62,812 nt of DNA, taken from the NCBI GenBank assembly GCA_037139195.1, contig JBAXGW010000019.1, positions 1 to 62,812 of the forward strand, given 5' to 3'. The stretch comes from Bacteroidota bacterium. Lineage in GTDB: Bacteria; Bacteroidota; Bacteroidia; Bacteroidales; JAHJDW01. Below are positions 2,767 through 42,917 of the stretch, one piece after another (the stretch's first letter is position 1; each line of letters begins with the position of its first letter). The translations under genes were made by a program, and so were the position numbers. The notes below the pieces were generated by a model. That model was given only the letters and a program-made list of their open reading frames with translations. It searched no databases and was not told the DNA's origin.

Positions 2767-2782
2767 AAAATAAATAATATAC

Positions 2783-4451: not shown

Positions 4452-4555
4452 AAAAAGGTAGAATAATTTACAGAATGCTAAAATAATAATTTTTTAGCAC
4501 TAAACAAACTAGATTGTCGAAATATTTTATAAATTATTGAAACTCTTTTAAAAAC

Positions 4556-5335: not shown

Positions 5336-5818
5336 TTATTCTTCAATGGGCAAAAACTTTTCAAATCCTGGATACAGAAGTTTTTCTTTGGCAATTTCAA
5401 CGTCATAAGTGAAATAATGAATCTCTGCTTGGGCACATAGTTCACCATCGTTATTGTATATAAAAGTATCAATAACAGCAATATTTCGCATCATCTTGTT
5501 TAATTTTGCCGTGATTTTTAATGGTCCTTTATTTGTGTAAACGGCTTTTTTTAAGCGAATATCCATTTTAGAGGTAACGCCAGATGTTTTTAATTTAACA
5601 AAAACAACCCAGCTGGCTATTTCGTCGAGTAAAGTTGCTTGAATTCCGCCATGTAAAATATTAATCCATCCCTGAAAGTGAGCTTTAGGTTCCCAATAGG
5701 ACACAATCATATCATCAACTTCTGAGAAAGTAAGTTGCAAGCCTGTTTTATTGTCAGGTGAGCAGCCAAAGCATTGATATCCATTTATTTCAGTGAAGGG
5801 GTTATTTAATTTTTTCAT
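5336..5818 (-). CDS. Hotdog-fold (PaaI/4HBT-like) thioesterase
   Basis: 160 aa with a GW..ILHGG...LLDE motif region typical of PaaI-family thioesterases. Its start abuts the stop of the MqnA-like gene. Confidence 0.55.
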   Translation of the reverse strand: MKKLNNPFTEINGYQCFGCSPDNKTGLQLTFSEVDDMIVSYWEPKAHFQGWINILHGGIQATLLDEIASWVVFVKLKTSGVTSKMDIRLKKAVYTNKGPLKITAKLNKMMRNIAVIDTFIYNNDGELCAQAEIHYFTYDVEIAKEKLLYPGFEKFLPIEE

Positions 5819-6786: not shown

Positions 6787-6946
6787 ATTATTTTAAAACT
6801 ATTTTTTATACTGAAATAATTAAATTGTAAAGTTGATTTGTAGTGCAATAATACAAATATTAAATATGTTTACATAATGATATTAGCAATAAAAAAAGAC
6901 TTTCGGTTTTGTCGAAAGTCTTTTTAGTTGTGTATCAATTAGATAA

Positions 6947-27437: not shown

Positions 27438-27550
27438 ACGGTAAATGGCACACGGTGAACGGTTCAAGGAAAACAATGGTTATTCAAGCCGTATACCTGT
27501 ATACTTGTTTACTCGTTAACTAAAAAAATAAACTAAAAAACATACATATT

Positions 27551-28909
27551 ATGGAAAAGACAAGATATGAACGTCCACTTATAAAAAAATTGGATGCAGG
27601 AATGCCTAACAAATTTGGTCTACGTACCGAGTATACTCCAATGACCCAAATTGACGGAGTATCGGTAAAAGATATTATTAAAGAATATGGTTCGCCTGTA
27701 TTTGTTATTTCTGAACGTTTTATTCGTTCAAATTATCGTAATGCAAAAAGAGCTTTCACAACACGTTATCCAAAAGTGCAATTTGCATGGTCGTATAAAA
27801 CAAACTACTTAAATGCTGTTTGTAATGTATTTCATCAAGAAGGTTCTTGGGCAGAGGTGGTTTCTGGATTCGAATATCAGAAAGCTCTAGCAAATGGAGT
27901 TCCAGGTAAAAACATTATTTTTAATGGCCCTGCAAAAACAAGAGAAGATTTACAGTTAGCAATCAACAATGAATCCTTAATTCATATCGATCATTTAGAT
28001 GAGTTGTATATGATTATCGAACTTGCCGACGAAATGAACAAACGTCCGAAAGTAGCTATTCGTGTAAATATGGATACTGGTATTTATCCAATGTGGGATC
28101 GATTTGGATTTAACTATGAAAATGGACAAGCTTGGGACGCATTGAATAAAATTATGATGTCGAAAAAGCTTGATTTGATGGGTTTACACTCACATATTGG
28201 AACGTTTATGCTTGCTCCTTGGGCTTATTCAAATGCTGCACTTAAATTAGCCGACTTAGCTCTTGGTTTGCAAAAGAAATTCAACCACGAAATTAAATAT
28301 ATTGATTTAGGTGGTGGTTTTCCTTCGAAGAATACACTTAAAGGTGCATTCCTTCCAGGTGCCGATTCTTGCCCTTCTTTCGACGAATTTGCAGAAGCTA
28401 TTTCTACAGCATTAATCAATTCTGGTTTTAATACCGAAAATTTGCCTATGCTAGTGCTTGAAACAGGACGTGCACTTATCGACGAAGCTGGTTATTTAAT
28501 AAGTTCGGTTATTGCAAACAAACGCTTATCGGCTGGCAGAAGAGCTACTATTTTGGATGCAGGTGTAAATATTTTATTTACTTCATTCTGGTATGATCAT
28601 AAGATTTCTCCAGCTCAACCATTTACTCATTATACCGAAGATACGGTGCTGTATGGTCCTTTATGTATGAATATCGACATTATTCGCGAAAGCATAAATC
28701 TTCCTTTGTTAAATAAAGGCGATAGTGTAGTTGTTCAGCATGTTGGTGCATACAATATGACTCAATGGATGCAATTTATAACCATGAGACCAAATGTGGT
28801 ATTGATTGATATGCAAGGTAAAACGCATCTAATTCGTCAGAACGAAACTAAAGATACCATTGTTAGCTTGGAAAAATTACCTGAACATTTAACCAAATTT
28901 GAGTTATAA
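27551..28909 (+). CDS. PLP-dependent decarboxylase, Orn/DAP/Arg decarboxylase family 2 (fold-type III)
   Basis: PLP-lysine motif FAWSYKTNY (AxKxN), the glycine-rich GGGF loop (IDLGGGFPS) and a C-terminal beta domain. Confidence 0.8.
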   Translation: MEKTRYERPLIKKLDAGMPNKFGLRTEYTPMTQIDGVSVKDIIKEYGSPVFVISERFIRSNYRNAKRAFTTRYPKVQFAWSYKTNYLNAVCNVFHQEGSWAEVVSGFEYQKALANGVPGKNIIFNGPAKTREDLQLAINNESLIHIDHLDELYMIIELADEMNKRPKVAIRVNMDTGIYPMWDRFGFNYENGQAWDALNKIMMSKKLDLMGLHSHIGTFMLAPWAYSNAALKLADLALGLQKKFNHEIKYIDLGGGFPSKNTLKGAFLPGADSCPSFDEFAEAISTALINSGFNTENLPMLVLETGRALIDEAGYLISSVIANKRLSAGRRATILDAGVNILFTSFWYDHKISPAQPFTHYTEDTVLYGPLCMNIDIIRESINLPLLNKGDSVVVQHVGAYNMTQWMQFITMRPNVVLIDMQGKTHLIRQNETKDTIVSLEKLPEHLTKFEL

Positions 28910-29131: not shown

Positions 29132-29509
29132 ATGAAAGCTTTTTTATTTTCTCTTATTCTTGTAATTACTTCCGCTGTTTCAAGCTATGCGTGTGAATTT
29201 CGTTTTGAAATTGTAAGCGAGCAAAAAACTACCTATAAAATAGGTGATGAGGTTATTGTAAAAGTAAAACTTATCGCATTTCATCCGTTTTGTGCTGAAG
29301 ATTTAAAGAATGTTAAATTTACTACTGAAGGAGTTGATGTCTTGGGGACAACTGATTGGCAATTGGTTTCTACAAGTGTTTACGAAAGAAAGGTTAAAAT
29401 GAGAATAACAGGTACAGCAACTGGTGAAGCAAAGTTAACTGCCACTCGATTATGCCTTAAAATGGGCGGAACTGGAACAATTGTGATAAACTCTGAACCA
29501 AAAAAATAA
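29132..29509 (+). CDS. Small secreted/lipoprotein-like hypothetical protein with 3 conserved-looking Cys
   Basis: Signal peptide ending ..SSYAC. A beta-rich 125-aa protein. A TAgcTTTG -7-like motif lies ~45 bp upstream. Confidence 0.4.
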   Translation: MKAFLFSLILVITSAVSSYACEFRFEIVSEQKTTYKIGDEVIVKVKLIAFHPFCAEDLKNVKFTTEGVDVLGTTDWQLVSTSVYERKVKMRITGTATGEAKLTATRLCLKMGGTGTIVINSEPKK

Positions 29510-29518: not shown

Positions 29519-30727
29519 ATGAAAAGATTATTAATTTTATTCTTTACTTTAGCTTTGGGTATGGGGAGTTTCTCATACCCAATGTTTGTTTATGCACAAC
29601 AAGGAAACGATGAATTTAAAACTCCCTCCGCTGATGAGTTTAAATCGGTTGACAAAAATGAATTCAAATCAGTAGATAAAAATGAATTTAAGTCAGTTGA
29701 TAAAAATGAATTTAAAAAAGAGACAAAAGGAAGCAAATCAGAGAATAAAAAGGACAATGAATTTAAAGAGGCTTCATCTGATGAGTTTGTTTCAAAAGAA
29801 GAATTTACTAAAATTTCGGAATCTAAAACTGGAGGTTGTTCCGGCTGCTCTGGATGTCCAAGCAAAACAGAAACCATTATTGATTATAGACCATTGTATG
29901 AAGTATTATGGATACTTGCTTTTGCAGTTTTAGCTGGAGTTTTTGTTCGATTTAAATTTACTCGAAACTTAAGAAATGTATTTCTGTTAAGTTCTTTAAT
30001 TTACTTGGGCTTTTATAAATATGGATGTCCGTGTATGATTTCGAGTTTTGAGGATTTTGTATTGTTATTTACAGGTAATTATACAAGTTGGTTTAATTAT
30101 GTATGGTTTTTAGGCTTAATTCCAATTACCTACATTTTTGGAAGAGTATGGTGTGGATGGGTTTGTCATCTTGGTGCATTGCAAGAATTTATTCATTTAC
30201 CTGCAAAATTTAATGTTTTTTCAGGTTATAAAGCTCAAAGAATAATGCGCTACTTGAGTTATGTATTAACTCTTGCATTAATTTTACAGATAATTATTCA
30301 GAAAAAAATATTTTGGTGTTCAATCGATCCGTTTGTGCCAATTTTTACTATGAATTTTAAATACGATTATACATTAATGAATTATATTTTAATTGGCACT
30401 CTGATTATTACCTCTCTTTTTTCGTATCGTCCTTTTTGTAGAGCGGCTTGCCCAGTTGGATTGGTTTTAAGTTGGATTTCATTAGTACCTGGCGCTTCAA
30501 TTATTGGTGTTAATAATCATTCATGCACAAGTTGCAAATCTTGTAATTCGGCTTGTAAAATAGATGCTATTACTAGAAATAATAAGTTAAGTAAGATAGA
30601 TAATAAAGAATGCATCGTTTGTGGCGATTGTCTTGATTCTTGCAATATTACGTCCCTGTCTTTTGTTCGCAATTGCAAATCAAAGGGGAACACAGTAATT
30701 GTTGAATGTAAAAAGGATTGTGTTTAA
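29519..30727 (+). CDS. NapH/MauN-like membrane polyferredoxin (4Fe-4S binding) with an N-terminal periplasmic EFK-repeat and CSGCSGC extension
   Basis: CGWVCHLG and FCRAACPVG transmembrane CxxxC(P/H) motifs. Two C-terminal CxxCxxCxxxC ferredoxin motifs (CTSCKSCNSAC; CIVCGDCLDSC). A tandem 24-bp DNA repeat at ~29609-29731 encodes the EFKSVDKN units. Confidence 0.7.
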   Translation: MKRLLILFFTLALGMGSFSYPMFVYAQQGNDEFKTPSADEFKSVDKNEFKSVDKNEFKSVDKNEFKKETKGSKSENKKDNEFKEASSDEFVSKEEFTKISESKTGGCSGCSGCPSKTETIIDYRPLYEVLWILAFAVLAGVFVRFKFTRNLRNVFLLSSLIYLGFYKYGCPCMISSFEDFVLLFTGNYTSWFNYVWFLGLIPITYIFGRVWCGWVCHLGALQEFIHLPAKFNVFSGYKAQRIMRYLSYVLTLALILQIIIQKKIFWCSIDPFVPIFTMNFKYDYTLMNYILIGTLIITSLFSYRPFCRAACPVGLVLSWISLVPGASIIGVNNHSCTSCKSCNSACKIDAITRNNKLSKIDNKECIVCGDCLDSCNITSLSFVRNCKSKGNTVIVECKKDCV

Positions 30728-30800: not shown

Positions 30801-31574
30801 TTATTTTTTAACAATAATTTTTGTTTTAATATCACCACTGTTTCTTTTAACTGAAACAAAGTATACGCCTTCAGCAATGTCATTAATATTTACGTTTAAA
30901 ATTCCAGAAGCATTGCTATAGTTTTTAGAAACAACAACTTGTCCATTAACATTATACATTTCTAATTTAGTATCTTCTGCTTTAGAACCTAAGTTGATGT
31001 TTAACATATTTGAAGCTGGATTTGGATAAACCATAATAGAAGAAGTTTCGTTATCTTCAACGTTAGTAGTAGTAGGAGTCCATGTTAAAGACATTGCTGT
31101 GTAGTTAGTTGTAGCAGTAGTTACACCTGTATTAGCAGTAGCACCTTTTGTAAAAGTAAAATAACTTACTGGACCAGCTGTGTTCGACCAAGCCATTTGA
31201 ATACCCACTTTGTAAGTTCCATCAGCTACAAGTGTTTGATTAACATCTTTTCCATTCCAGGTAAGAGCTAAAGGGGTAGTGTGATTTGCTAGAGTTGCTC
31301 CAGTTGTGGCATCAACTACGTTTTCAGCAGATTTAGTAATCCAAGTTGCTAAATATTGCTTGCGAGCAACTGCTTGTCTTAAAAGAGTTTTAACAAATAC
31401 GCCATTTGCGTCTTCAATCCAAACAGCTACAACATGTTTTGGTGAGTATGTTCCCGCTCCTGATGGAGACGCTGTTGTAACATTAAAAGCCATTGTTCCT
31501 GCAGTTTGAGCAAACGATTTTAAACCAAAAGCAATAAAAATTGCAATAGTAAATAATGTAGAAATTTTTTTCAT
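30801..31574 (-). CDS. DUF2271-like secreted protein with an ApbE-type flavinylation motif (DATTGAT) and a T9SS C-terminal sorting domain
   Basis: Signal peptide. HVVAVWIEDANGVFVKTL DUF2271-like core. DATTGAT matches the Dxx(S/T)GA(T/S) FMN-acceptor motif. C-terminal IMVYPNPASNMLNINL...GVYFVSVK Por_Secre_tail. Confidence 0.6.
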   Translation of the reverse strand: MKKISTLFTIAIFIAFGLKSFAQTAGTMAFNVTTASPSGAGTYSPKHVVAVWIEDANGVFVKTLLRQAVARKQYLATWITKSAENVVDATTGATLANHTTPLALTWNGKDVNQTLVADGTYKVGIQMAWSNTAGPVSYFTFTKGATANTGVTTATTNYTAMSLTWTPTTTNVEDNETSSIMVYPNPASNMLNINLGSKAEDTKLEMYNVNGQVVVSKNYSNASGILNVNINDIAEGVYFVSVKRNSGDIKTKIIVKK

Positions 31575-31814
31575 AAATGATATAGTTTTTAGTTAATTTT
31601 AGCTAATATAAAAATATTTTAGATGTCTTCAAAACGACTTGCAATTTTTTTTTAAGAAAAAATCATTAAATTTTTTTAATGTTTCTCCTTTTAATCAATA
31701 AATGTAGCAATTCCTATAAAAATAATAGGATTGTGAAGATTTATTCCTTTTTTTATTATTTGGAATTATTATAAATAGCAGTTTGTTTAATTAAAAAAGG
31801 AATCAATTGTTTTT

Positions 31815-31841
31815 TTGACATGTAATTTTTCGATATATTTG
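31815..31841 (+). promoter_or_regulatory. Putative Bacteroidota sigma-A type promoter (TTG ... TAtaTTTG) for the cytochrome operon
   Basis: TTGaca at 31815-31820 and TATATTTG at 31834-31841, ~35 bp upstream of the first operon gene. Confidence 0.3.
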
Positions 31842-31874
31842 ATAGGATAAAATTAAAATTAACCGTGTTTTTAT

Positions 31875-32288
31875 ATGAATAAACTATCTAAATTATTACT
31901 TCTAACAGCATGTTCTGTTGTTATTTTTAGCTGCGAAAAAGCTACAATTGAATTCAATGACAAAGGTGTAACCAAAGTAGTTAAACCTATAGGTGCTGGT
32001 GCAGATTCTGTTCGTTTTAGTGCAGCTATTTATCCGCTTTTCGAAGCAAATTGTCAAAGCTGTCATGGTGGTTCTGGTGGTTTTACTATAACTAATGTAA
32101 CTACTGCTCACCAAGAAATAATGAATATTAATCTAGCTACTCCTGGTACTATAATTCCTGGTGACCCTGCAAATAGTGGAATTATGACTAAGTTTACTAC
32201 AACTGGCGATCACAATGGCGTTGTAGTTACGCAGCCTAATATTGATTTATTAAGTACGTGGATTTCGCAAGGAGCAAAAAACAATTAA
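31875..32288 (+). CDS. Mono-heme c-type cytochrome lipoprotein
   Basis: Lipoprotein-type signal (LLTACSVVIFSC) and a single CQSCH heme c motif. Confidence 0.5.
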   Translation: MNKLSKLLLLTACSVVIFSCEKATIEFNDKGVTKVVKPIGAGADSVRFSAAIYPLFEANCQSCHGGSGGFTITNVTTAHQEIMNINLATPGTIIPGDPANSGIMTKFTTTGDHNGVVVTQPNIDLLSTWISQGAKNN

Positions 32289-32315
32289 TTTACAGAAACT
32301 AAATTTTAAAATAAA

Positions 32316-33296
32316 ATGAATAAAAAATTTATAATAATATTGTTTAGTATTGTTTGCAGCTTTAATATGTTTGCTCAAACAACAGATTCAGTTGCTGATG
32401 CAGCAGCCGCAGAAAAAGCAGAAGGAAAAAAAGCTGTTAGAGACCCATGGGCTTGTAACGTTATTGTTGATAATCAAACTACAAATACAAATACTAAGGG
32501 TAGTATGGAATTTATGATTCATCATCGTTTTGCAAATTTCTCACAAGGTTTAGATAACCTATATGGTATTTATGGTTCTTCTAATATCAGATTAGGTATT
32601 ACTTATGCCGTTACTGATAAAATAATGATTGGTTTTGGGTCTGAAAAAGACAACAAACAACAAGAATTTACAGGAAAAGTTAAGTTTTTGGATCAAAACA
32701 GAGCGGGTAGTGTACCAGTTTCAGTAGCTTTATTCGGAAATGCTTGTATTAATACAAACAAAAAAGAAACTTGGGGCGATGGATTTAAATTTGATGATAA
32801 ACTTTCGTACTTTGGTCAATTAATGGTTTCTCGTAAGTTTTCTGATCGTTTAACATTTCAAGTAGCTGGATGCTTTAGCCATTTTAATAAAGTAGAGAGT
32901 AATAAAAATAAAACGGTAAAAATTACCACTGACACTGTTGCAGGAACAACTACTACTGCAACAACTGTTACATATAAAAACAAATATGCAAATGAAGCTT
33001 TTGGCGTTTCTTGTGGTGGTAGATTTAAATTTTATAATGAAATGTCTTTGGTTGCAGAATATAATCAACCGCTTTTAAATTTAGATTTTACTAAAGTTGA
33101 AAATTCAGATATTTTAAAACCAAAACCAAATCTTGTATTAGGAGTTGAGGTTGCTACTAGCACCCATGCTTTCCAAATATTTGTAGCTTCATCTAAAGGG
33201 ATTACAGCACAAAACAATTTTGTTAAAAATCAAGTAGATTACACAGATGCCAAGCAATTGTTAATTGGTTTTAATATCACTGTTAGATTAAACTAA
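32316..33296 (+). CDS. Outer-membrane beta-barrel protein (candidate porin partner of the cytochromes)
   Basis: Signal peptide, alternating beta-strand pattern, and a terminal aromatic/hydrophobic strand (ITVRLN). Sits immediately upstream of the multi-heme cytochrome. Confidence 0.5.
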   Translation: MNKKFIIILFSIVCSFNMFAQTTDSVADAAAAEKAEGKKAVRDPWACNVIVDNQTTNTNTKGSMEFMIHHRFANFSQGLDNLYGIYGSSNIRLGITYAVTDKIMIGFGSEKDNKQQEFTGKVKFLDQNRAGSVPVSVALFGNACINTNKKETWGDGFKFDDKLSYFGQLMVSRKFSDRLTFQVAGCFSHFNKVESNKNKTVKITTDTVAGTTTTATTVTYKNKYANEAFGVSCGGRFKFYNEMSLVAEYNQPLLNLDFTKVENSDILKPKPNLVLGVEVATSTHAFQIFVASSKGITAQNNFVKNQVDYTDAKQLLIGFNITVRLN

Positions 33297-33366
33297 TTTT
33301 TCAACTTAAAAATTTCATTACTTCAATATTGAATATATTATTGTTTAACTCATAAAAATCAACAAA

Positions 33367-34374
33367 TTGAATAAAAAAAGAATAATACTATTTATTAACG
33401 TATTATTATTATTTATAGTTTTTGGGTTGATAGCTTATCTTCAACACAAACCAGTAGAAATAATAAAGGCAGGCGTTAAACATGAATACACCAGCAAAGC
33501 AGAGAATCAAAATTGTTTGAAGTGTCACGGTGTTCATAAATATGAATGTACGAATCCAGATGATTCTACACAACAAGCATTCAAGAAAATGTATGCAGAA
33601 AATGTTATTGATACAACAGCATACTATCACTCCAACCATTATGATTTTAAGTGTAGTGATTGCCATTCTGCTGATTATAAAAAAACACCTCACAATCCTG
33701 CATTAAAATTTGAAGAAATTAGTGCTTGTATCGATTGCCATGGCGAAGATACTACGTATGCAAAATTTCATTTCGACTCAATAAATGTTGATTATGGGAA
33801 GAGCATACATGCCACTAAACTTGGGAAAGACTTTAGTTGCTGGAGTTGTCATAATTCCCATACATATAAAACTCAATACAAAGATTCTTCAAAAACAGTT
33901 GAACAAGCTATTGAATATGCAAATGCAATGTGTTTGAGTTGTCATACTAGTAATGATAGAATGCAATATTTTGGTGATGAAAAAACCGATATAACTAAAA
34001 AACACCAATGGCTTACAAATCAAGATGCTCATTTCAAGAAAGTAAGATGCATTGATTGTCATACAGAGCCTAATTCAAATTCTGATGTCGCTCATAATTT
34101 AGTGCCGAAAGAAAAGGCTATTAGAAAATGTATTACTTGTCACGCCCCAAACTCAAAAACGTTAAACAATTTGTATTTAACTAGAAAGTCTATTCAAGCT
34201 GAAAAGCTCGGGTTTACACATCCGGAGTTGGTTAAAGACGCAAATGTTATTGGAGCAAATCAGAATAATTACCTTTCAATAATTGCATTGTCTATCATTG
34301 GATTAATGATTGTTGGATTAACAGTACATATTATTTTTAGAATTAAACTAAGCAAGAAAAATGGGAAATCATAA
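33367..34374 (+). CDS. Membrane-anchored heptaheme c-type cytochrome
   Basis: Seven CxxCH motifs (CLKCH, CSDCH, CIDCH, CWSCH, CLSCH, CIDCH, CITCH), an N-terminal TM anchor and a C-terminal TM helix. Confidence 0.8.
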   Translation: MNKKRIILFINVLLLFIVFGLIAYLQHKPVEIIKAGVKHEYTSKAENQNCLKCHGVHKYECTNPDDSTQQAFKKMYAENVIDTTAYYHSNHYDFKCSDCHSADYKKTPHNPALKFEEISACIDCHGEDTTYAKFHFDSINVDYGKSIHATKLGKDFSCWSCHNSHTYKTQYKDSSKTVEQAIEYANAMCLSCHTSNDRMQYFGDEKTDITKKHQWLTNQDAHFKKVRCIDCHTEPNSNSDVAHNLVPKEKAIRKCITCHAPNSKTLNNLYLTRKSIQAEKLGFTHPELVKDANVIGANQNNYLSIIALSIIGLMIVGLTVHIIFRIKLSKKNGKS

Positions 34375-34963
34375 ATTATATTTATATCCACTTTGGCTAC
34401 GTTTATGGCATGTAACTAATGCCTTGCTATGCCTAACATTAATGTTTACTGGTGGTTTTATGCATTTTGGATCAAATATTATAAGTTTTGCTATAGCAGT
34501 AAAAATTCATAATGTAGTTGGAATTATATTATTAGTTAATTATACCATTTTTGTGTTTGGAAACCTTATTACTAATAATGGGAATCATTATATACTAATA
34601 TTTAAAGGATTATTTAAAAGAATTTTTACTCAATTAAGGTATTATTCTTTTGGAATGTTTAAAGGCGAGGAAACTCCTTTTCCTGTAAGCGAAGAGAATA
34701 AGTTTAATCCTGTTCAACAAATAACATATTACTCAATAATGTACGCTTTGCTTCCAATATTAGGAATTACAGGCATTGCAATGCTATTTCCAGAAAAAGT
34801 AATATTTGAATTGTTTTCAATAAAAGGTATTGTATTAATTGATTTTGTTCATTTAATAGGCGGATTTTGTATCGTGTTATTTCTAGTAATTCATCTTTAC
34901 TTTTCAACGGTTGGCGAAAAAATATCTTCGCATTTCAAAAGTATAGTTACTGGATGGCACTAA
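34361..34963 (+). CDS. Di-heme b-type cytochrome membrane subunit (Ni/Fe-hydrogenase/FdhC/PhsC-like cytochrome b family)
   Basis: Four TM helices with conserved His ligands (LWHVTN, HNVVG, HLIGG, HLYF). Overlaps the preceding gene by 14 bp. Confidence 0.6.
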   Translation: MGNHKLYLYPLWLRLWHVTNALLCLTLMFTGGFMHFGSNIISFAIAVKIHNVVGIILLVNYTIFVFGNLITNNGNHYILIFKGLFKRIFTQLRYYSFGMFKGEETPFPVSEENKFNPVQQITYYSIMYALLPILGITGIAMLFPEKVIFELFSIKGIVLIDFVHLIGGFCIVLFLVIHLYFSTVGEKISSHFKSIVTGWH

Positions 34964-35018
34964 TTTTGTAAAATAAAACAAACTTAATTATAATTATTAA
35001 TTTAAAAACGGAGGTAAA

Positions 35019-35423
35019 ATGAAAACTAAATTAGTATTTTTTAACTTAGCAGCTCTTGTTATTATTGTTGCACTTACTACAGCTTTTTCTGCAGGAAAAG
35101 AACCATGGGTTATTCCAGCAAAATACAAAGCAATGAAAAACACTGTAAAATCAAATGCAGATAACATTAAAGTTGGTAAAGCTTTATGGGATAAACAATG
35201 CAAAAGTTGTCATGGTGGAGCTGGTAAAGGTGATGGCGTAAAAGCTAAAGGTTTGAAAACAAGTTGTGGTGATATGGCTGCTGCTGCTTTCCAAGCACAA
35301 ACAGATGGCGAAATTTATTTCCAATCATTTATTGGAAGAAATGAAATGCCTAATTTTGAAAAGAAAATTGCAGATGAAACTGATAGATGGAGTGTAGTGA
35401 ATTATATACGTTCATTGAAGTAA
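35019..35423 (+). CDS. Class I c-type cytochrome (c551/c552-like)
   Basis: Signal/anchor sequence, a CKSCHGG heme motif and a distal Met-containing segment (EMPNF). Confidence 0.7.
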   Translation: MKTKLVFFNLAALVIIVALTTAFSAGKEPWVIPAKYKAMKNTVKSNADNIKVGKALWDKQCKSCHGGAGKGDGVKAKGLKTSCGDMAAAAFQAQTDGEIYFQSFIGRNEMPNFEKKIADETDRWSVVNYIRSLK

Positions 35424-35559
35424 TTATTTTTTATTTTTCATATTTAATTAAAACCTAACAGAATTTATTCTGTTAGGTTTTTCACATATTGCTACTTCGT
35501 TTATAATTAAAATATCGTAAATTGCGTTTCTAAAAAGTACCCTCTAATCAATCTGATAG

Positions 35560-36786
35560 ATGAAACAAATAATCAAGTTTTTTTATTCTCGCACAAGCTA
35601 TAATATTAGTTTTTTTATTGCTTTTTCACTTGTGTTTTTGGGCTTTTTTCTAAATTATTTTACCGGAACTCATAAGCTGGTTTTAGATTGGCCTGTAAAT
35701 ATTATTGTGTTAATAGTTTTTGTTGCAATTATTGTTAATTTGAATATTTTTTCAAAAAACGCTATTGTTGCTTGGCTTTCAAGTATTCCTGCATCAATTT
35801 CAGCAATTTGCACTTATTCTTTTTTAGTGTTTTTAATGGGATTAATCCCCCAAAATAATCCTGAGGCTTCAAGTATTCTTTTTAAATTAGGGCTCACTGA
35901 TATTGTAAGCAGTTGGAGTTTTCTTCTTATTTCATTTTATTTACTTACAATTTTAGGCTTCGTTATAATGAAGCGCTTAAAGAAATTTAATTTCAGAAAT
36001 TCTGTTTTTATTCTTAATCACTTGGGTTTATGGATAACAGTCACTTCTGCTTTATTAGGTAGTAGTGATGTCTCAAAATACCAAATGTCTATTGCCGAAG
36101 GTCATAAGACAAATATTGTAACCAATGATCAATCAGAAATGTTTCAAATGCCTTTTGATATTCAGTTAATTGATTTTAAAATTGATGAATATATTCCTAA
36201 TATAATTTTAGTTAATCCAAACGATGGATTTATTATTAATGATAAAAAGGATAAAAGCTTTGAAATAAAGGAAAATGCGGTTCAAATATTGAAAAACTGG
36301 GAAATAAAAGTACTAAAGTATTATGAAAATGGCATTCCAAAGGACTCAAGTTATTCGCCGTCAAATGTGGAAGGAGCTGTCCCAGTTGCATATATTGAAG
36401 CTAAACTTGTTGGAGGCAATCAAAAAACGTTAAATGGATGGATTACAAGTGGTAGTAAATTTATTCCTCAACAAATTTTATATATCGAAAAAAATATTGC
36501 TATTGCAATGACTATTCCTACTCCAAAGAAATTTAGCTCAAGTGTTAAAATTTATGATAAAACTAATGTTTCAGATACTAAATTAATTGAAGTTAATAAG
36601 CCTCTGAGCGTTGGAAATTGGAAGATTTATCAAATTGGTTATGATGCAGAGAAAGGAAAATGGTCGAAAATTAGCACTTTTGAGATAGTAAATGACCCAT
36701 GGATTAATGGTGTTTATTTCGGAATTGGGATGTTGCTAATTGGAAGTTTATTGTTATTTTGGGTTGGTAAAACTAAAGAATTGTAA
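35560..36786 (+). CDS. Cytochrome c biogenesis protein ResB/CcsB (System II)
   Basis: N-terminal TM helices, a large periplasmic domain and a C-terminal TM. Directly precedes a CcsA homolog with a 2-bp gap. Confidence 0.55.
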   Translation: MKQIIKFFYSRTSYNISFFIAFSLVFLGFFLNYFTGTHKLVLDWPVNIIVLIVFVAIIVNLNIFSKNAIVAWLSSIPASISAICTYSFLVFLMGLIPQNNPEASSILFKLGLTDIVSSWSFLLISFYLLTILGFVIMKRLKKFNFRNSVFILNHLGLWITVTSALLGSSDVSKYQMSIAEGHKTNIVTNDQSEMFQMPFDIQLIDFKIDEYIPNIILVNPNDGFIINDKKDKSFEIKENAVQILKNWEIKVLKYYENGIPKDSSYSPSNVEGAVPVAYIEAKLVGGNQKTLNGWITSGSKFIPQQILYIEKNIAIAMTIPTPKKFSSSVKIYDKTNVSDTKLIEVNKPLSVGNWKIYQIGYDAEKGKWSKISTFEIVNDPWINGVYFGIGMLLIGSLLLFWVGKTKEL

Positions 36787-36788
36787 TT

Positions 36789-37592
36789 ATGAGCGGAGCA
36801 AATTTTCATACTTTTTATTTTATCATAATTTCATTATGGATTTGTGGTTTAGTTTTGTTTTTTTTAGAAAACAAAGAAAAAAGAAAAATATCTAATTTTG
36901 GGCTTGCTACAATTGCACTTGGAGTTGCAGTTGTGGGTTTTTATATAGGTTATTTATGGATATTATTAGAACGACCTCCAATGCGAACTTTAGGCGAAAC
37001 AAGATTATTGTATGCGCTTTTTGTCCCCATAATTGGATTCATTATTTTTTATCGATGGAAAATAAAATGGATGATAGTGTATAGCATTGTTTTAGCAGCT
37101 GTTTTTTTAACTATTGATTTTGTTATGCCCGAAGTTTTTAATAAAACTCTAATGCCAGCATTACAAAGCTTTTGGTTCGTTCCACATGTTATAGTATATA
37201 TTTTTGCTTATGCAATTTTAGGATTTTCAACTGTCATTGCTATTTGGGGACTATTCCTTTTGTATAAAAAAACGTTCAATACTGAGGTTTTATTTTTAGC
37301 TGATAATACCGTTTATGTTGGTTTTACATTCCTAACTTTAGGATTATTGTTTGGTGCACTTTGGGCAAAGGAAGCCTGGGGTAATTACTGGACTTGGGAT
37401 CCTAAAGAAACTTGGGCTTTCTTAACATGGCTAGGCTATTTATTATACATACATCTTCGAATACGACACAAAGATTCTATAAAAATTCCGTTAATAGTTC
37501 TTTCGGCTATTTTTGTAGTGCTAATAATATGTTGGTTTGGAATAAACTATCTTCCTTCAGCTCAAAATAGCGTTCATGTATATGCTAATTAA
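36789..37592 (+). CDS. ccsA: Cytochrome c biogenesis protein CcsA/ResC (System II haem lyase subunit)
   Basis: WWD-type motif AKEAWGNYWTWDPKETWAFLTW with conserved His residues in TM helices. Confidence 0.8.
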   Translation: MSGANFHTFYFIIISLWICGLVLFFLENKEKRKISNFGLATIALGVAVVGFYIGYLWILLERPPMRTLGETRLLYALFVPIIGFIIFYRWKIKWMIVYSIVLAAVFLTIDFVMPEVFNKTLMPALQSFWFVPHVIVYIFAYAILGFSTVIAIWGLFLLYKKTFNTEVLFLADNTVYVGFTFLTLGLLFGALWAKEAWGNYWTWDPKETWAFLTWLGYLLYIHLRIRHKDSIKIPLIVLSAIFVVLIICWFGINYLPSAQNSVHVYAN

Positions 37593-37614
37593 TAAATTAT
37601 TAAAAATATAAACT

Positions 37615-38073
37615 ATGAAATTTAAAAAAACATTTTCTGCTATAGCAATTGCAATTTGCTACGTAGTATTAGCTTCAAGCTGTGAAAGAGAAAACGAAGC
37701 TAGAAGTTCTGAATCTGGTGAAGACAGCCATAACACTGGTGTTGATTGTATGATTTGTCATAAAAAAGATGGTAATGGAAAAGGAATTTTTACTGTTGCA
37801 GGAACTGTTTATGATAGTATTCAAAAAAATATTGTTACTGGTGCTACTGTTAGACTGTATTCTGGTGCAAATGCCACAGGAACATTATTAGCTACAATTC
37901 CTAATGATCAAAGTGGTAATTTTTATATCTCTAATACTATTGATTTTACAAAGGATGTATATGTTAGTGTAAAATCGAGAAGCGGTAATATTAAAGAGAT
38001 GAACGGAAAAATTAAAACTGGAGCTTGTACCAGTTGTCATGGCACTACAACTGATGTTGTTTGGGTTAAATAA
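37615..38073 (+). CDS. Di-heme c-type cytochrome lipoprotein
   Basis: Lipoprotein-type signal (LASSC) and two CxxCH motifs (CMICH, CTSCH). The internal IVTGATV resembles a flavinylation core but lacks the leading Asp. Confidence 0.6.
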   Translation: MKFKKTFSAIAIAICYVVLASSCERENEARSSESGEDSHNTGVDCMICHKKDGNGKGIFTVAGTVYDSIQKNIVTGATVRLYSGANATGTLLATIPNDQSGNFYISNTIDFTKDVYVSVKSRSGNIKEMNGKIKTGACTSCHGTTTDVVWVK

Positions 38074-38117
38074 TTATTCAAATCTTTTTTAATCTAAAAC
38101 TTAATATTAAACCAAAC

Positions 38118-39122
38118 ATGAAAAAAGTACTTTTCGTTTTATTTATTATTTTTAATATTTCTTTAAATCTTAGAGCTCAAGAGGCTCCATTTAGAATTAA
38201 TGGATATATTCAAGGTTCAACCTATTCAATTGTTTATTTTGATAAGGAGAGTAGAGATTTTAAAAAAGAAATTGAATCGATTCTAGAACAATTTAACAAA
38301 TCTGTATCAATTTACGATTCAACATCTATTATCTCAAAAGTTAATAGAAATGTTCCAAATGTTCAATTAGATGAATATTTTATTACATGTTTTAATAAAT
38401 CTCTTGAAGTTTCTAAAGCAACTGATGGCGCTTTTGATATTACTGTTGGACCACTGGTAAATGCTTGGGGCTTTGGCAATAAAAATAAAGAGAAAATGGA
38501 TACAGCTAAAGTTAAAGCTATTCTCGAGCATGTGGGTTTTAATAAAGTTTCTATTAAAAATAATCTGTTAGTTAAAACAGATCCAGAAGTTATTATCGAT
38601 TTTAATGGAATTGCACAAGGATATTCGGTTGATGTCATAAGTAATTTTTTAAAATCGAAAAAAATCGAAAATTTCATTGTTGAAATAGGTGGAGAAGTAT
38701 ATGCTAATGGGAAAAAACCAAACGGGACATTTTGGACAGTAGGAGTAGAAAAGCCTAATGATAATAAAGATGGCAAAAATGATTTAGAGGCTATTGCAAA
38801 ACTAGAGAATTCTGCTTTAACAACCGCAGGTAATTATAGGAAGTTTTACATTGAGAATGGTATTAGATATTCACATACAATTAATCCAAAAACTGGTTTC
38901 CCTGCTAAAAACACTTTGTTAAGTGCTTCGGTATTTGCAAAAGAATGTATAATATGCGATGGATATGATACTCCATTTATGGTAATGGGATTAGAAAAAA
39001 CACTTGTATTTTTGAAAAAACATCCCGAAATACAAGCATATTTAATATATTCGGATGAAAAAGGTGATGTGAAAACATTTGAAACAGAAGGATTGAAAGA
39101 TATTTTAACTGAAAAAAAATAA
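38118..39122 (+). CDS. apbE: FAD:protein FMN transferase (ApbE family), periplasmic
   Basis: Signal peptide. ApbE motifs GAFDITVGPLVNAWGFG, DFNGIAQGYSVD and VEIGGEV. Confidence 0.8.
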   Translation: MKKVLFVLFIIFNISLNLRAQEAPFRINGYIQGSTYSIVYFDKESRDFKKEIESILEQFNKSVSIYDSTSIISKVNRNVPNVQLDEYFITCFNKSLEVSKATDGAFDITVGPLVNAWGFGNKNKEKMDTAKVKAILEHVGFNKVSIKNNLLVKTDPEVIIDFNGIAQGYSVDVISNFLKSKKIENFIVEIGGEVYANGKKPNGTFWTVGVEKPNDNKDGKNDLEAIAKLENSALTTAGNYRKFYIENGIRYSHTINPKTGFPAKNTLLSASVFAKECIICDGYDTPFMVMGLEKTLVFLKKHPEIQAYLIYSDEKGDVKTFETEGLKDILTEKK

Positions 39123-39127
39123 ACAAT

Positions 39128-39158
39128 AAAAAAACCACTAGAAATAGTGGTCTTTTTA
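39128..39158. terminator. Bidirectional rho-independent terminator
   Basis: aaaaaa-accacta-gaaa-tagtggt-cttttt. Confidence 0.65.
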
Positions 39159-39175
39159 TTGGCAAAAACAGTAAA

Positions 39176-39973
39176 TTAATTTACCACCAATTTATAGTTG
39201 AAGTTTTGATTGTTTCTTTGAACTTTAACAAAATAAACACCTTCAGCAAATTTGTTTAAATCAATTGATTTAATGCCTGATAATTGAGTAAATGATTCAG
39301 CGTAAACTTCCACTCCAATTGCATTAATTAATTGAATTTTTGTGTCGGCTTTATTGTCTCCTAACTCTAAATTTAACTTGTCAGTAGTAGGATTAGGAAA
39401 AATACTTACATTCATATTGTTATCATTAATTCCAACAGTTGAAGGAGTCCAAGTTAAAGTCATGCTTGTAAAGTATGTAGTAGCTGTAGGTGTTTTACTG
39501 TCAACTGATGTGCCTTTAACAAAAGGAATAGATATAGAAGATGTGCTTAAACCATCACTATCCCAAGCTATTTCTACCCATAATGTATAATTGCCATCAT
39601 CAACTAAAGTCCCTGACACATCCGTTCCATTCCAAGTGATAGATCGGGCTCCATTATCGTACAATGTTGCTCCAGTTGTAGCGTCTGTAGTATTTCCACC
39701 TGATTTTAAATTCCAAAGTGTCAAGTCACTGATTTGATTTACAGCGTATTTAAGCTTAGTTTTTACAAAAGCATTTGAGCTGTTTTCTATCCAAATTGCT
39801 ATAACATGTCCTGCCTCGTTTCCGGTTTCACATGGACCGCATGTAAAACCTTGAGTAGTAACAGAGAATGTTAATAAACCAGGTGTTTTAACTGCAAAAG
39901 CCTGAGTTGATAGAGCAATAATACATACAGCTATTGCACTTTTTAATAAATTTAAAGTAAAAATTTTTTTCAT
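39176..39973 (-). CDS. DUF2271-like secreted protein with an ApbE-type flavinylation motif (DATTGAT) and a T9SS C-terminal sorting domain. The likely start is the MKKIF Met.
   Basis: Paralog of the 30801-31574 gene (HVIAIWIENSSNAFVKTKL; DATTGATL; SIFPNPTTDKLNLEL...GVYFVKVQ). Confidence 0.6.
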   Translation of the reverse strand: MKKIFTLNLLKSAIAVCIIALSTQAFAVKTPGLLTFSVTTQGFTCGPCETGNEAGHVIAIWIENSSNAFVKTKLKYAVNQISDLTLWNLKSGGNTTDATTGATLYDNGARSITWNGTDVSGTLVDDGNYTLWVEIAWDSDGLSTSSISIPFVKGTSVDSKTPTATTYFTSMTLTWTPSTVGINDNNMNVSIFPNPTTDKLNLELGDNKADTKIQLINAIGVEVYAESFTQLSGIKSIDLNKFAEGVYFVKVQRNNQNFNYKLVVN

Positions 39974-40079
39974 ATTTTTTTTTATTTGTTTGTATTCTAT
40001 CATGCAAAATTAGTAAAATTTATTGATAAAAAGGATGAGTAATCAAACCCATCCTTTTTATAAATATGAACTAATGATT

Positions 40080-42917
40080 TTATTTAGTAATAAGCATTTT
40101 ACTTTGTATGCTTTTCCCGTTGCCAACAACATCAATATAATATAAACCATTATTAAAGTTGGTAATATCATAGTTAACAACTGAAACATTTTCAGTTTTG
40201 GTAATTTTCTTTTCAGATATCAATTGACCAAAAGTATTAAATATTTTTATTGTAACATCTCCAGAAACGGCTTCGCCTAAAGAAATATTAAAGTTACCAT
40301 TGCTAGGATTAGGATAAACATTGACCCCATTATTAGATGTAGGAGCGTGAACACCTACTGTGCCTTCTGGATTCCAAGCTGTAACGATATTAATTAAACT
40401 AGTATCTGAAACTAAACCATGAACATCAGCAGCTGTCCCTTTAACAAATACAGTATCCCAGTTACAACCAACACCATTGAAAGCAGGTGTAGTTACTCCA
40501 TTAGATGTTGTAGCAATTAAATGTTCAGTATGGTCATTAAGGTCTAATTTGATTTTATATTGACCGTCATTTACTAAGTTTCCAAACATATCTTTTCCAT
40601 CCCAAGTAAGATTATATGTGATAGTCCAGTTATTTACTGCTTTAGAATATTGAGATGCACCCGAAATTACGTCTGGAGCTAAGCCGCCAAAATCTTTTTC
40701 GTAGAAGAATAATTCATAAGCATGGTTAGCACCGTAATGAACAATTGTTTTAATAGGTTTATCATTCATATCAGTAATATATGCAGCAAATACAGAGCAA
40801 CTGTCATATTTAGGATTTGTATTTAAATTTTGAGCCGTTCTTTTAGTCGTAACTGCAACTGTTAAATTTCCTGCAGTTTTTGTTCCAGTCCATGATAATG
40901 CAGGGTAGGTTGTAGGTGTGTAAGATCCTGTGTTATATGTTGTACCTGTTGTTGTTGCAGTTGTTTTTCCTGTTCTATCGACAGCTTCGCCTTCAAAATC
41001 ATAAAGCATCTGAAGATTAGCAGTTGTTAATGGAGTTGTTATCGCATTTGGTGTGGCTTTAGCAGCTAGTTCTGCAGCTGTTTTACAAACATCCCAAACT
41101 CTAATTTCATCAATGTTACCATTAAAATATTCGCTTGTTATTTTAGTTGTTGTTACACCACCTGTTGTTGATTTAGTAGCTAGTTTTTGACCTCCAATAT
41201 ATTTAATACTTATAGGTGCAACTGTAGCCTTTACAACTAATGAATCTATAAACGAGCCATTTAAATAAAGTTTTAGCGAAGCATTATTGTATGTTAAAGC
41301 AAGATGATTCCAATGATTACTATGCAAAAGATTATATACTTTTTTGCTTAAATGCGTTGGGACCGTAGCTGCTAATGTATCAAATCCATAAGTAATTACA
41401 TGTGCATTGCTAATTGCAATATAAGGTGCTCTTCTGTATTTAGATGCTGTTGCACTGCCATCAACGCTGTCGTTTCCAAAAATGTAACCTGCAGAGGTAA
41501 GGCTGTTTGGCATTACAAATGCTTCAACAGTGAAGTTTTGACCTAAAATTGGACCATTGTTTATAGAAACATTTGTAGAGTCAATTCTTGAAAAATTCAT
41601 TGAATGAGTCTGATTTGTTGGATTCCAAGCCATACTTATATTCAATAAACTAGTATCAGAAACAGTTCCATGAACATCTGCAGCCATTCCTTTTACAAAA
41701 ACTGTATCCCAGTTGCAGCCAACACCATTGAACGCAGGCGTTGTGACCCCATTAGATGTTGTTGCAAGTAAATGTTCAGTATGGTCATTAAGGTCTAATT
41801 TCAATTTATATTGACCGTCGTTCACTAAATTGCCAAACATATCTTTTCCATCCCATGTAAGATTGTATGTAATTGTCCAGTTATTTACAGCTTTTGAATA
41901 TTGAGAAGCACCTGAAATTACATCTGGAGCCATTCCGCCAAAGTCTTTTTCGTAGAAGAATAATTCATACGCATGGTTAGCACCATAATGAACAAGTGTT
42001 TTAATAGGTTTGTCATTCATGTCAGTTATATAGGCCGCAAATACAGAACAACTATCGTATTTTGGATTTGTATTTAAGTTTTGTGCTGTTCTTTTAGTTG
42101 TTACAGAAAAAGTTAATGTGCCATCTGTTTTTGTGCCAGTCCATGATAATGCAGGAAAAGATGTAGCTGTATATGATTCCGTACTATTAGTTGAGCCGGT
42201 GATAGTTGCTGTTGAATTACCTGTTTCATCAATAGCATCTCCATTAAAATCATAAAGCATTTTAAGATTTGGAGTAGTTAGAGGGGCTGTTATTGCATTT
42301 GGTGATGCGCTTGCAGTCAATTCAGCTGCTGATTTACAAACGTCCCAAACTCTAATTTCATCAATATTGCCATTAAAATATTCGCTTGTTATTTTAGTAG
42401 TTGTTACTCCACCAGTTGTTGATTTAGTAACTAGTTTTTGACCTCCAATATATTTAATTCTGATTGGAGCAACTGTAGTCTTTACAACTAATGAGTCTAT
42501 AAAAGAGCCATTTAAATAGAGTTTTAATGCAGTATTATTATAAGTTAAAGCAATATGATTCCAATGATTACTATGCAAAAGGTTATATACTTTTTTGCTT
42601 AAATGTGTTGGGACAGCAGCCACTAATGTATCGAATCCGTAAGTGATTACATGAGCATTGCTAACAGAAATATAAGGAGCTCTTCTGTATTTTGATGCTG
42701 TTGCGCTGGCATCTACACTGTCATTGCCAAAAATATATCCAGCAGAAGTGAGGCTAATTGGCTGAATAAAAGCCTCAATTGTGAAGTTTTGACCTAAAAT
42801 AGGTCCATTGTTAATTGTTACGTTTGTTGAATCAATTCTCGAAAAATTCAAAGAGTTTTGTGCGCCTGCTGCTCCAACAAAAAACAGCAAAATTAATCCA
42901 AGTAGGTGTTTTCTCAT
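40080..42917 (-). CDS. Large secreted protein: two tandem [LamG/concanavalin-like + DUF2271-like flavinylation (DVISGAS)] modules followed by a T9SS C-terminal sorting domain
   Basis: Signal peptide. Two ~420-aa modules about 90% identical. LamG hallmarks (NGNIDEIRVWD). DVISGAS in each module. C-terminal VNVYPNPSNGNFNISL...GLYYIDVV Por_Secre_tail. Confidence 0.65.
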   Translation of the reverse strand: MRKHLLGLILLFFVGAAGAQNSLNFSRIDSTNVTINNGPILGQNFTIEAFIQPISLTSAGYIFGNDSVDASATASKYRRAPYISVSNAHVITYGFDTLVAAVPTHLSKKVYNLLHSNHWNHIALTYNNTALKLYLNGSFIDSLVVKTTVAPIRIKYIGGQKLVTKSTTGGVTTTKITSEYFNGNIDEIRVWDVCKSAAELTASASPNAITAPLTTPNLKMLYDFNGDAIDETGNSTATITGSTNSTESYTATSFPALSWTGTKTDGTLTFSVTTKRTAQNLNTNPKYDSCSVFAAYITDMNDKPIKTLVHYGANHAYELFFYEKDFGGMAPDVISGASQYSKAVNNWTITYNLTWDGKDMFGNLVNDGQYKLKLDLNDHTEHLLATTSNGVTTPAFNGVGCNWDTVFVKGMAADVHGTVSDTSLLNISMAWNPTNQTHSMNFSRIDSTNVSINNGPILGQNFTVEAFVMPNSLTSAGYIFGNDSVDGSATASKYRRAPYIAISNAHVITYGFDTLAATVPTHLSKKVYNLLHSNHWNHLALTYNNASLKLYLNGSFIDSLVVKATVAPISIKYIGGQKLATKSTTGGVTTTKITSEYFNGNIDEIRVWDVCKTAAELAAKATPNAITTPLTTANLQMLYDFEGEAVDRTGKTTATTTGTTYNTGSYTPTTYPALSWTGTKTAGNLTVAVTTKRTAQNLNTNPKYDSCSVFAAYITDMNDKPIKTIVHYGANHAYELFFYEKDFGGLAPDVISGASQYSKAVNNWTITYNLTWDGKDMFGNLVNDGQYKIKLDLNDHTEHLIATTSNGVTTPAFNGVGCNWDTVFVKGTAADVHGLVSDTSLINIVTAWNPEGTVGVHAPTSNNGVNVYPNPSNGNFNISLGEAVSGDVTIKIFNTFGQLISEKKITKTENVSVVNYDITNFNNGLYYIDVVGNGKSIQSKMLITK
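40376..42895. repeat. Direct tandem duplication of ~1.26 kb inside the gene (units at roughly 40376-41634 and 41636-42895, ~90% nucleotide identity)
   Basis: Long collinear stretches of the two DNA segments align directly (for example 40381-40900 against 41641-42160). Confidence 0.8.

Follow-up and report, generated by a model that had tools for sequence, protein, structure and literature searches.

A Bacteroidota redox locus encoding DUF2271-type proteins with candidate flavinylation sites and type IX secretion sorting domains

The stretch of DNA analyzed here, called the window below, is a 62.8-kb contig of about 31% G+C whose NCBI record is a Bacteroidota metagenome-assembled genome. A compact redox locus spans ~29.1-42.9 kb of the window, in which a plus-strand operon (31875-39122) is flanked by three minus-strand genes for DUF2271-type proteins that end in C-terminal sorting domains (CTDs) of the type IX secretion system (T9SS) and carry predicted acceptor sites for flavin mononucleotide (FMN). 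The operon encodes, in this order, a monohaem lipoprotein of 137 amino acids (aa), a DUF5777 protein, a heptahaem cytochrome, a cytochrome b, a monohaem cytochrome c, ResB, CcsA, a 152-aa dihaem lipoprotein and the FMN transferase ApbE. Genes for a NapH-like protein and a 125-aa secreted protein sit upstream of the operon, and the remainder of the contig is housekeeping, except for two unrelated T9SS cargo genes. A second assembly of the same locus was found as L001 (L numbers denote loci and P numbers proteins). The DUF2271-type proteins and ApbE are encoded as follows, with positions in nucleotides (nt) of the window:

30801-31574, minus strand: DUF2271 protein A, 257 aa, with a signal peptide (..SFA/QTAGT), a DUF2271 domain and a T9SS type A CTD
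39176-40003, minus strand: DUF2271 protein B, a 275-aa open reading frame, with a signal peptide, a DUF2271 domain and a T9SS type A CTD
40080-42917, minus strand: T9SS cargo protein of 945 aa, with a signal peptide, two copies of a LamG/concanavalin-like domain plus a divergent DUF2271-like module, and a type A CTD
38118-39122, plus strand: ApbE, flavin adenine dinucleotide (FAD):protein FMN transferase (PF02424, 268.5 bits), final gene of the operon

Both small proteins matched the Pfam family DUF2271 (PF10029) above its gathering score of 27.3 bits, protein A with 29.3 and protein B with 39.7 bits. NCBI already gives one of the two the name 'DUF2271 domain-containing protein' (P0001), and it calls protein B as a 265-aa protein, the probable start being the ATG at 39973. 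When the module of the 945-aa protein was compared by hhalign with a profile of DUF2271-T9SS proteins, the alignment reached a probability of 98.4% (E 9e-15) over 145 columns and placed the sequence DVISGAS of the module on the DATTGAT of the profile; the modules of the 945-aa protein appear best called divergent DUF2271-like modules. Structure searches found no solved DUF2271 domain. The AlphaFold model of the 257-aa protein (mean predicted local distance difference test score, pLDDT, 81) consists of an immunoglobulin (Ig)-like sandwich followed by the CTD, with the DATTGAT motif in a loop (residues 83-101) after the sole helix, where the pLDDT block means are 76 and 59. A low-confidence model of a LamG domain plus module, used solely for the order of secondary-structure elements, showed the same order as the model of the 257-aa protein. 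Signal peptides were judged from N-terminal hydrophobic sequences read directly. Flavinylation of this family has been demonstrated in Amantichitinum ursilacus, where DUF2271 acquires a covalent flavin from its cognate ApbE and a Thr-to-Ala change in the motif abolishes the attachment (Meheust et al. 2021, eLife, PMC8238504), a precedent that an earlier note on this DNA, which had proposed the sites on other grounds, left out.

The motif DATTGAT occupies residues 88-94 (nt 31293-31313) of protein A and residues 107-113 (nt 39665-39685) of the 275-aa frame of protein B, and the two copies fall in the same alignment columns, in agreement with the equal relative position that the earlier note had claimed for them. 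DVISGAS was found, as that note had also stated, once in each duplicated module of the 945-aa protein, at residues 332-338 (nt 41904-41924) and 749-755 (nt 40653-40673). The predicted FMN acceptors are Thr94 in protein A, Thr113 in protein B (Thr103 in its 265-aa form), and Ser338 and Ser755 in the 945-aa protein. Across all stop-to-stop frames of the window that are 100 aa or longer (20,719 aa), Dxx[ST]GA[ST] occurs exactly four times, always in the three DUF2271-type proteins, and the bare [ST]GA[ST] five times. The motif is absent from both of the other T9SS type A cargo proteins encoded in the window (6947-9058 and 18523-20493, both on the minus strand, one with an Omp28-like domain), indicating that it is no general feature of the T9SS cargo of this organism.

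The two repeat units of the 945-aa protein, residues 20-436 (nt 41610-42860) and 437-855 (nt 40353-41609), are 86% identical in amino acid and 83% in nucleotide sequence, and the gene contains a recent internal tandem duplication of a 1.25-kb unit of LamG plus DUF2271-like module. Both DVISGAS copies thus derive from one event and constitute one line of evidence, so that the four copies on which the earlier note had built its argument are exact as sites but amount to three independent occurrences. Pfam scores for this protein were 97.5 bits for Laminin_G_3 and 53.3 bits for Por_Secre_tail. A word-indexed search with the module missed even the protein itself, and an exhaustive search was used; it returned a small family of LamG plus module plus CTD proteins (P0037, P0039, P0058 and P0061, 36-51% identity) that share the pattern A-P-D..[ST]-G-A-[ST], invariant at A, P, D, G and A. 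Three of these, P0037, P0039 and P0058, are single-unit orthologues of ~500 aa, and the closest orthologue is an orphan gene amid unrelated genes. Two or three DUF2271 motifs were found in the further proteins P0092 and P0177. Most matches of the exhaustive search were set aside, being large repeat proteins that align to the FlgD-Ig-like residues ~90-135 alone.

All three DUF2271-type proteins end in a T9SS sorting domain, as the earlier note had proposed. Scores against TIGR04183 were 51.6, 42.5 (protein B) and 35.7 bits for a cut-off of 23, and those against PF18962 (Por_Secre_tail) were 53-56 bits (53.5 for protein B) for a cut-off of 27, both cut-offs being curated. These CTDs also resemble solved translocon-bound CTDs in sequence and fold and, judged by these comparisons, are genuine sorting domains. 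The presence of two other CTD proteins in the window suggests that the organism uses a T9SS.

The ApbE of the window has a cleavable signal peptide and no lipobox cysteine, and is therefore predicted to be periplasmic. Its closest solved relative was the Vibrio cholerae ApbE 6nxi_A (E 1e-52, ~300 residues aligned); it keeps the Asp and Thr at the ADGLAT position of 6nxi and a His (RYSHTINP) aligned to the residue altered in the 6nxj mutant chain, all of which we take to be catalytic or metal-binding residues. As its score of 183 against the Escherichia coli-type PRK10461 lies under the equivalog cut-off of 498, the assignment holds at the family level only. Orthologues of this ApbE (E 1e-113 to 1e-134) are encoded beside DUF2271-T9SS genes in L010, L025, L044, L051 and L071.

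The earlier note had staked its reading on conservation of the motif in orthologs, and such conservation was found. All 35 close relatives keep the motif, with Ala and Gly invariant; most of them combine DUF2271 with a T9SS CTD, which is missing from some lipoprotein-type forms of ~180 aa. One genome per species was then scanned with the narrower alignment A2 as seed, alignment A1 being too diverse for this purpose. The scan yielded 64 loci, mostly from Bacteroidales, Prolixibacteraceae, Paludibacter, Lentimicrobiaceae and Flavobacteriaceae, to which Myxococcota and Planctomycetota contributed relatives lacking the CTD. One of the two A2 search patterns contains the motif, so its conservation in those loci is partly built in; on the other hand, the ~85 domains aligned by hmmalign to one profile include second copies and loci found via the other pattern, and there the column reads D-A-x-[TS]-[GS]-A-[TS], with the final Ser/Thr lost in one domain. 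In the ApbE-adjacent DUF2271 genes of Myxococcota the motif reads DAVSGATR. Within the 43 species-level CTD-bearing loci (608 kb in total), apbE was found in 5, against ~0.46 expected by a rough estimate at a generous 0.75 apbE genes per Mb (P ~1e-4), an approximately ten-fold enrichment. The adjacency to apbE invoked in the earlier note thus holds for the window, where the gene lies beside that for the 275-aa frame, and is the exception among relatives.

Two giant proteins, encoded at 8432-15616 of L050 and 9989-20530 of L053 (frames of ~2,400 and ~3,500 aa, respectively), each carry two DUF2271-like domains near the N-terminus with the motif variants TAAT, AGAT and VGAT, and these domains may be non-flavinylated or atypical.

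The other genes of the locus are the following:

31875-32288, plus strand: 137-aa monohaem (CQSCH) lipoprotein with one CxxCH and a lipobox-like LLLTAC, first gene of the operon
32316-33296, plus strand: predicted outer-membrane beta-barrel, 326 aa, DUF5777 (PF19089, 215.5 bits; NCBI name 'DUF5777 family beta-barrel protein')
33367-34374, plus strand: heptahaem c-type cytochrome with 7 CxxCH and a C-terminal membrane anchor (hydrophobic segment at ~residue 300)
34361-34963, plus strand: membrane cytochrome b of the Ni_hydr_CYTB / b561 type (PF01292, 87.3 bits)
35019-35423, plus strand: 134-aa monohaem class I cytochrome c, predicted periplasmic, with Cytochrom_C and Cytochrome_CBB3 matches and one CKSCH
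35560-36786, plus strand: ResB (PF05140, 62.2 bits)
36789-37592, plus strand: CcsA/ResC (PF01578, 108.4 bits)
37615-38073, plus strand: 152-aa dihaem lipoprotein (CMICH, CTSCH) with a beta-sandwich between the haems, immediately 5' of apbE
29519-30727, plus strand: NapH/NosR-like membrane iron-sulfur protein (Fer4_5, 47.2 bits for a cut-off of 22; TIGR02163 napH, 72 bits, below cut-off)
29132-29509, plus strand: 125-aa secreted protein upstream of the NapH-like gene, its membership of the system uncertain

The homologue of the 137-aa haem lipoprotein adjoins DUF5777 in L018, L025, L033, L044, L051 and L071, and L073-L075 have a small gene in the equivalent position. Full-text searches of the literature found no paper mentioning DUF5777, and the barrel of the window lacks the [ST]GA[ST] motif. 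The heptahaem gene starts at 33427 in public gene calls (315 aa, as in L001); its product has Pfam matches to Cytochrome_C7, c3 and NrfB-like families and only weak, sub-threshold matches to MtrC domain II/IV and to the DmsE type. Its 3' end is overlapped by the gene for the membrane cytochrome b, which would be the quinol-interacting partner, and this pair of genes is found as well in L025 and L073, while the 134-aa cytochrome c is conserved in L018, L024, L033 and L073-L075. ResB and CcsA, a System II pair for cytochrome c maturation, lie inside the operon and likewise in L018 and L033, which suggests that the locus carries its own haem-attachment machinery. The 152-aa dihaem lipoprotein has homologues in three loci that contain ApbE, namely L051, L073 and, with two copies, L044. 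A search for FNR/Crp boxes gave counts at chance level, with none in promoter regions.

The fifth [ST]GA[ST] of the window is NIVTGAT, at residues 72-78 (nt 37828-37848) of the dihaem lipoprotein. It was rejected as a flavin site, as it has no Asp at -3 and its homologues in Flavobacterium alvei read SNAT or differ, and probably represents a GA[TS]V strand of the kind that CarboxypepD_reg-like sandwiches typically contain. The homologue in L073 carries HLFTGAS.

The NapH-like protein has an N-terminal periplasmic stretch with three DKNEFKSV repeats and a CSGCSGC run, and its gene has the membrane iron-sulfur signature (PF12801) of the NapH-like class of Meheust et al. 2021. It contains neither an FMN_bind domain nor [ST]GA[ST], no FMN_bind match was found in the neighbouring genes, and in the related loci the gene matched only L001 and, weakly, L058. 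Filing the locus as a NapH-like flavinylation system was rejected because FMN_bind is absent and the NapH-like gene is not conserved, and this gene is treated here as an accessory neighbour. The 125-aa secreted protein gave no Pfam or NCBIfam match and no homologue in the related loci.

Loci that combine these genes in other genomes show how the set is assembled. In L010, two DUF2271-T9SS genes lie beside ApbE. L025 contains three DUF2271-T9SS genes (DATTGAS), ApbE, DUF5777 and two haem lipoproteins, together with a cytochrome b, a heptahaem-type cytochrome, a 929-aa multihaem/membrane fusion and a Crp-family regulator. L044, from the cultured Flavobacterium alvei HR-AY (NZ_PQVG01000002.1, positions ~121,500-142,300), encodes two dihaem lipoproteins, DUF5777, the haem lipoprotein, YceI, a DUF2271-T9SS protein, ApbE and a second DUF2271-T9SS protein, and is resembled by L051 and L071 with DUF2271-T9SS, ApbE, DUF5777 and the haem lipoprotein. 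The cytochrome/DUF5777/ResB/CcsA set is present in L018 and L033, with ApbE not in range. Three further loci (L073-L075) were examined starting from DUF5777: L073 has the full gene set including ApbE, and in L074 and L075 (Yeosuana aromativorans) the small gene and DUF5777 are accompanied by multihaem cytochromes and quinol modules of the NrfC/NrfD-like type, neither locus having DUF2271 or ApbE. A CxxCH was found in the small DUF5777-adjacent gene of L075 and none in those of L074 and L073. In all loci examined the small gene, which usually has one CxxCH, adjoins DUF5777, beside either cytochrome b and multihaem or NrfC/NrfD-like and multihaem modules. This arrangement gives the pair the look of an outer-membrane module that is conserved in cytochrome chains linked to quinol, and the DUF2271-T9SS and ApbE set is an addition in a subset of those chains. 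By analogy, the haem lipoprotein and DUF5777 might form a split porin-cytochrome of the Cyc2 kind.

The 929-aa protein of L025 (4104-6893) has many CxxCH motifs fused to a C-terminal multi-helix membrane domain and lies inside the DUF5777/DUF2271/ApbE cluster; it is reminiscent of the CbcL-type multihaem/cytochrome b fusion of Geobacter.

These results suggest that the organism probably displays flavin-carrying electron-transfer proteins on its surface. Family membership, the published flavinylation of DUF2271, the conservation of the motif column and the enrichment of apbE agree in pointing to the motif as an ApbE acceptor site, in line with the earlier note. After Sec export, the periplasmic ApbE would use FAD as donor and attach FMN to the final Thr/Ser of Dxx[ST]GA[ST], in a flexible loop after the single helix of the Ig-like sandwich, and that ApbE modifies these residues in the periplasm is likely. 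We infer that flavinylation precedes export: the folded, flavin-loaded proteins would be recognized via their type A CTDs and moved by the T9SS across the outer membrane, to be anchored at the cell surface or released. The T9SS exports its cargo after folding, and this, with the genuine CTDs, makes export of the folded proteins likely.

Electrons would pass from the cytochrome b and the heptahaem protein, on the quinol side, to the periplasmic and lipoprotein c-type cytochromes, then to the monohaem lipoprotein and the DUF5777 barrel, and finally to the DUF2271 flavins. In the 945-aa protein, the two flavin modules would be kept close to a solid or polymeric substrate by the LamG domains, and the chemistry would probably consist in reducing an acceptor outside the cell, for which Fe(III) is the most plausible candidate. 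That the DUF2271-T9SS proteins form the extracellular end of the cytochrome chain is a tentative proposal based on gene neighbourhood only, and the broader idea of an undescribed Bacteroidota form of extracellular electron transfer, leading from menaquinol through cytochrome b and multihaem proteins and through the haem lipoprotein and DUF5777 to flavinylated DUF2271 proteins delivered by the T9SS, is rather doubtful. We regard the full reading, namely periplasmic flavinylation followed by T9SS export to the extracellular end of a cytochrome chain, as moderately likely.

Several observations weigh against this reading. For the T9SS-linked members of the family, flavinylation is predicted from sequence alone, and the 945-aa protein scores 18.7 bits on Pfam DUF2271, under the cut-off, with a pLDDT of 30-60 in the module of the LamG plus module model (an alignment of six sequences). 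Occasional motif variants (TSAT, TAAT, VGAT and TGPT) occur among the ~85 aligned domains, and in the ApbE-containing L073 a DUF2271-T9SS protein (6550-7359) has the degenerate DALTSST, so that either the site tolerates Ser-Ser or this copy lost flavinylation. Genes for the T9SS machinery were not found in the 62.8-kb window, and literature searches found no precedent for T9SS export of a protein with covalent FMN. The part of DUF5777 in electron transfer, or its contact with the DUF2271 proteins, is deduced from its neighbours. Finally, most DUF2271-T9SS genes stand alone as orphans, neither apbE nor any redox gene lying within 10 kb of them, which means that the link to a cytochrome/ApbE operon holds for a subset only.

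The purpose of the surface flavoproteins could also be assimilatory, namely the reduction of free or chelated Fe(III) for iron uptake, an alternative that we consider unlikely. Clusters of DUF2271 with PepSY have been linked to iron reduction and assimilation (PMC8238504), and in L044 the cluster immediately follows genes (1435-5433) for an extracytoplasmic function (ECF) sigma factor, the anti-sigma factor FecR and a TonB-dependent receptor that contains a Plug domain and, at its N-terminus, a CarboxypepD_reg-like domain, an arrangement that hints at iron- or metal-responsive control in F. alvei. However, this TonB/FecR set occurs in that locus only, and the window contains no iron transporter but a full quinol-to-cytochrome chain with its own maturation genes. 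Given this chain and the Crp-family regulators in L025, L073 and L074, respiratory control fits as well or better.

It is improbable that the proteins are flavinylated but stay in the periplasm, with the NapH-like protein or the cytochromes as partners and the CTD irrelevant or reserved for later disposal. All DUF2271 proteins described earlier are periplasmic (PMC8238504), and the ~180-aa lipoprotein-type relatives do without a CTD; the CTD is, however, kept in the 43 species-level loci with the scores and the resemblance to translocon-bound structures given above, and the NapH-like gene, which adjoins that of protein A, is not conserved.

A reversed or different flow, either from extracellular Fe(II) or other donors through a split Cyc2-type system or toward secreted oxidative enzymes, is very improbable. 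The pair of monohaem protein and barrel is reminiscent of Cyc2, and YceI-like proteins are encoded in L044, L051 and L071, secreted YceI and cytochrome proteins being reportedly proposed as redox partners of bacterial polysaccharide monooxygenases, but no oxidase, polysaccharide monooxygenase or carbohydrate-active enzyme was found in the window locus.

Least probable of all is that the modules bind no flavin and are Ig-like (FlgD-Ig type) adhesin or spacer modules with DATTGAT as a structural loop and an ApbE serving other substrates such as Nqr or Rnf, for although FlgD_ig matches overlap the C-terminal half of the DUF2271 domain, the exhaustive search returned mostly repeat proteins matching that part, and most relatives are without apbE nearby, the loop reproduces the ApbE consensus exactly, including the Asp and the near-invariant final Ser/Thr, is common to the ApbE-adjacent genes of Myxococcota, and belongs to a family enriched in apbE neighbours, with every locus that has several DUF2271-T9SS genes (L010, L025 and L044) carrying apbE.

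Surface display of flavinylated DUF2271 proteins, the reading that we prefer, shares features with several known systems. The two small proteins of the window belong to the same Pfam family as the ApbE-flavinylated DUF2271 proteins of PepSY-like clusters, and they share with these the [S/T]GA[S/T] in the same loop, a signal peptide for Sec export and the presence of a cognate apbE. The established examples come from Proteobacteria, where they are soluble in the periplasm and have PepSY-like and DUF4198 genes as partners (PMC8238504). The window differs from these in its T9SS sorting domains, its LamG fusions and the two modules in one protein, and in having c-type cytochromes, a cytochrome b and a DUF5777 barrel as partners, without PepSY or DUF4198.

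PplA of Listeria monocytogenes, which Light et al. reportedly described in 2018 as part of flavin-based extracellular electron transfer, is likewise a surface protein with two ApbE-type sites and forms the outermost member of an electron chain that starts at the quinone pool. In PMC8238504 this system goes by the name 'extracellular electron transfer'. Whereas PplA consists of FMN_bind domains and is a lipoprotein of a monoderm, the fold in the window is DUF2271 and the proteins would cross the outer membrane via the T9SS. The likeness to MtrCAB of Shewanella lies in the combination of a quinol oxidase in the inner membrane and multihaem cytochromes in the periplasm with a barrel in the outer membrane and a redox protein at the surface; unlike MtrCAB, the window has a DUF5777 barrel of ~300 aa, compared to ~700 aa for MtrB, and its surface part would be a T9SS-exported flavoprotein and not a decahaem lipoprotein. 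Since neither an MtrB-type porin nor MtrA/MtrC decahaem cytochromes were found in the window, this resemblance is a functional analogy only.

DUF3570, presumably an outer-membrane beta-barrel, offers another ApbE substrate at the outer membrane of a diderm. It is known as a flavinylated protein (PMC8238504), and flavinylation sites vary with localization among cytosolic membrane, periplasm and outer membrane (PMC11334425). In contrast to DUF3570, where the flavin sites lie within the protein itself, the barrel of the window is motif-less, and secreted proteins distinct from it carry the candidate sites. The 945-aa protein, P0092 and P0177 hold several sites per polypeptide, as do the multi-flavinylated extracytoplasmic proteins of Gram-positive bacteria, which sometimes have wall- or substrate-binding domains and are built from FMN_bind (PMC8238504); unlike these, they use DUF2271-type modules and belong to diderms.

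Flavinylation of DUF2271 is already known, and what is new here is the T9SS export route, the LamG-fused two-module architecture and the cytochrome and barrel partners. The T9SS and Bacteroidota go unmentioned in connection with DUF2271 both in Meheust et al. 2021 (PMC8238504) and in the follow-up paper of 2024, and full-text searches found no paper in which flavinylation, ApbE or extracellular electron transfer of this kind is connected to the T9SS. The strings PF18962, PF19089 and PF10029 are absent from the text-form supplementary files of Meheust et al., which leaves undecided whether the cluster is present in the tables.

Flavinylation by ApbE is known for inner-membrane and periplasmic proteins of diderms, for the outer membrane (DUF3570) and for Gram-positive surfaces. 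If T9SS cargo carries covalent FMN, the T9SS moves cofactor-loaded redox proteins, and Bacteroidota, which are abundant in sediments, soils and guts and whose extracellular redox chemistry is poorly known, would gain a flavin-based reach to insoluble or polymeric electron acceptors. The whole electron route from menaquinol to the surface, if real, would be the first to rely on the T9SS for delivering a redox protein with covalently bound flavin, and the first outer-membrane conduit of a diderm to end in a flavin. The recurrent pairing of DUF5777 with a small haem lipoprotein offers this barrel family a first testable role, and the presence of the same gene set in the cultured F. alvei HR-AY opens the idea to genetics and fluorescence gels.

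Elsewhere in the window, genes for an ATP-grasp enzyme and a pyridoxal phosphate-dependent ornithine/diaminopimelate/arginine decarboxylase-type protein lie just 5' of the redox locus (26391-28909, plus strand). A VitK2_biosynth gene of the futalosine pathway of menaquinone biosynthesis was found at 4556-5335 (minus strand), which is consistent with a menaquinone-based chain feeding the locus.

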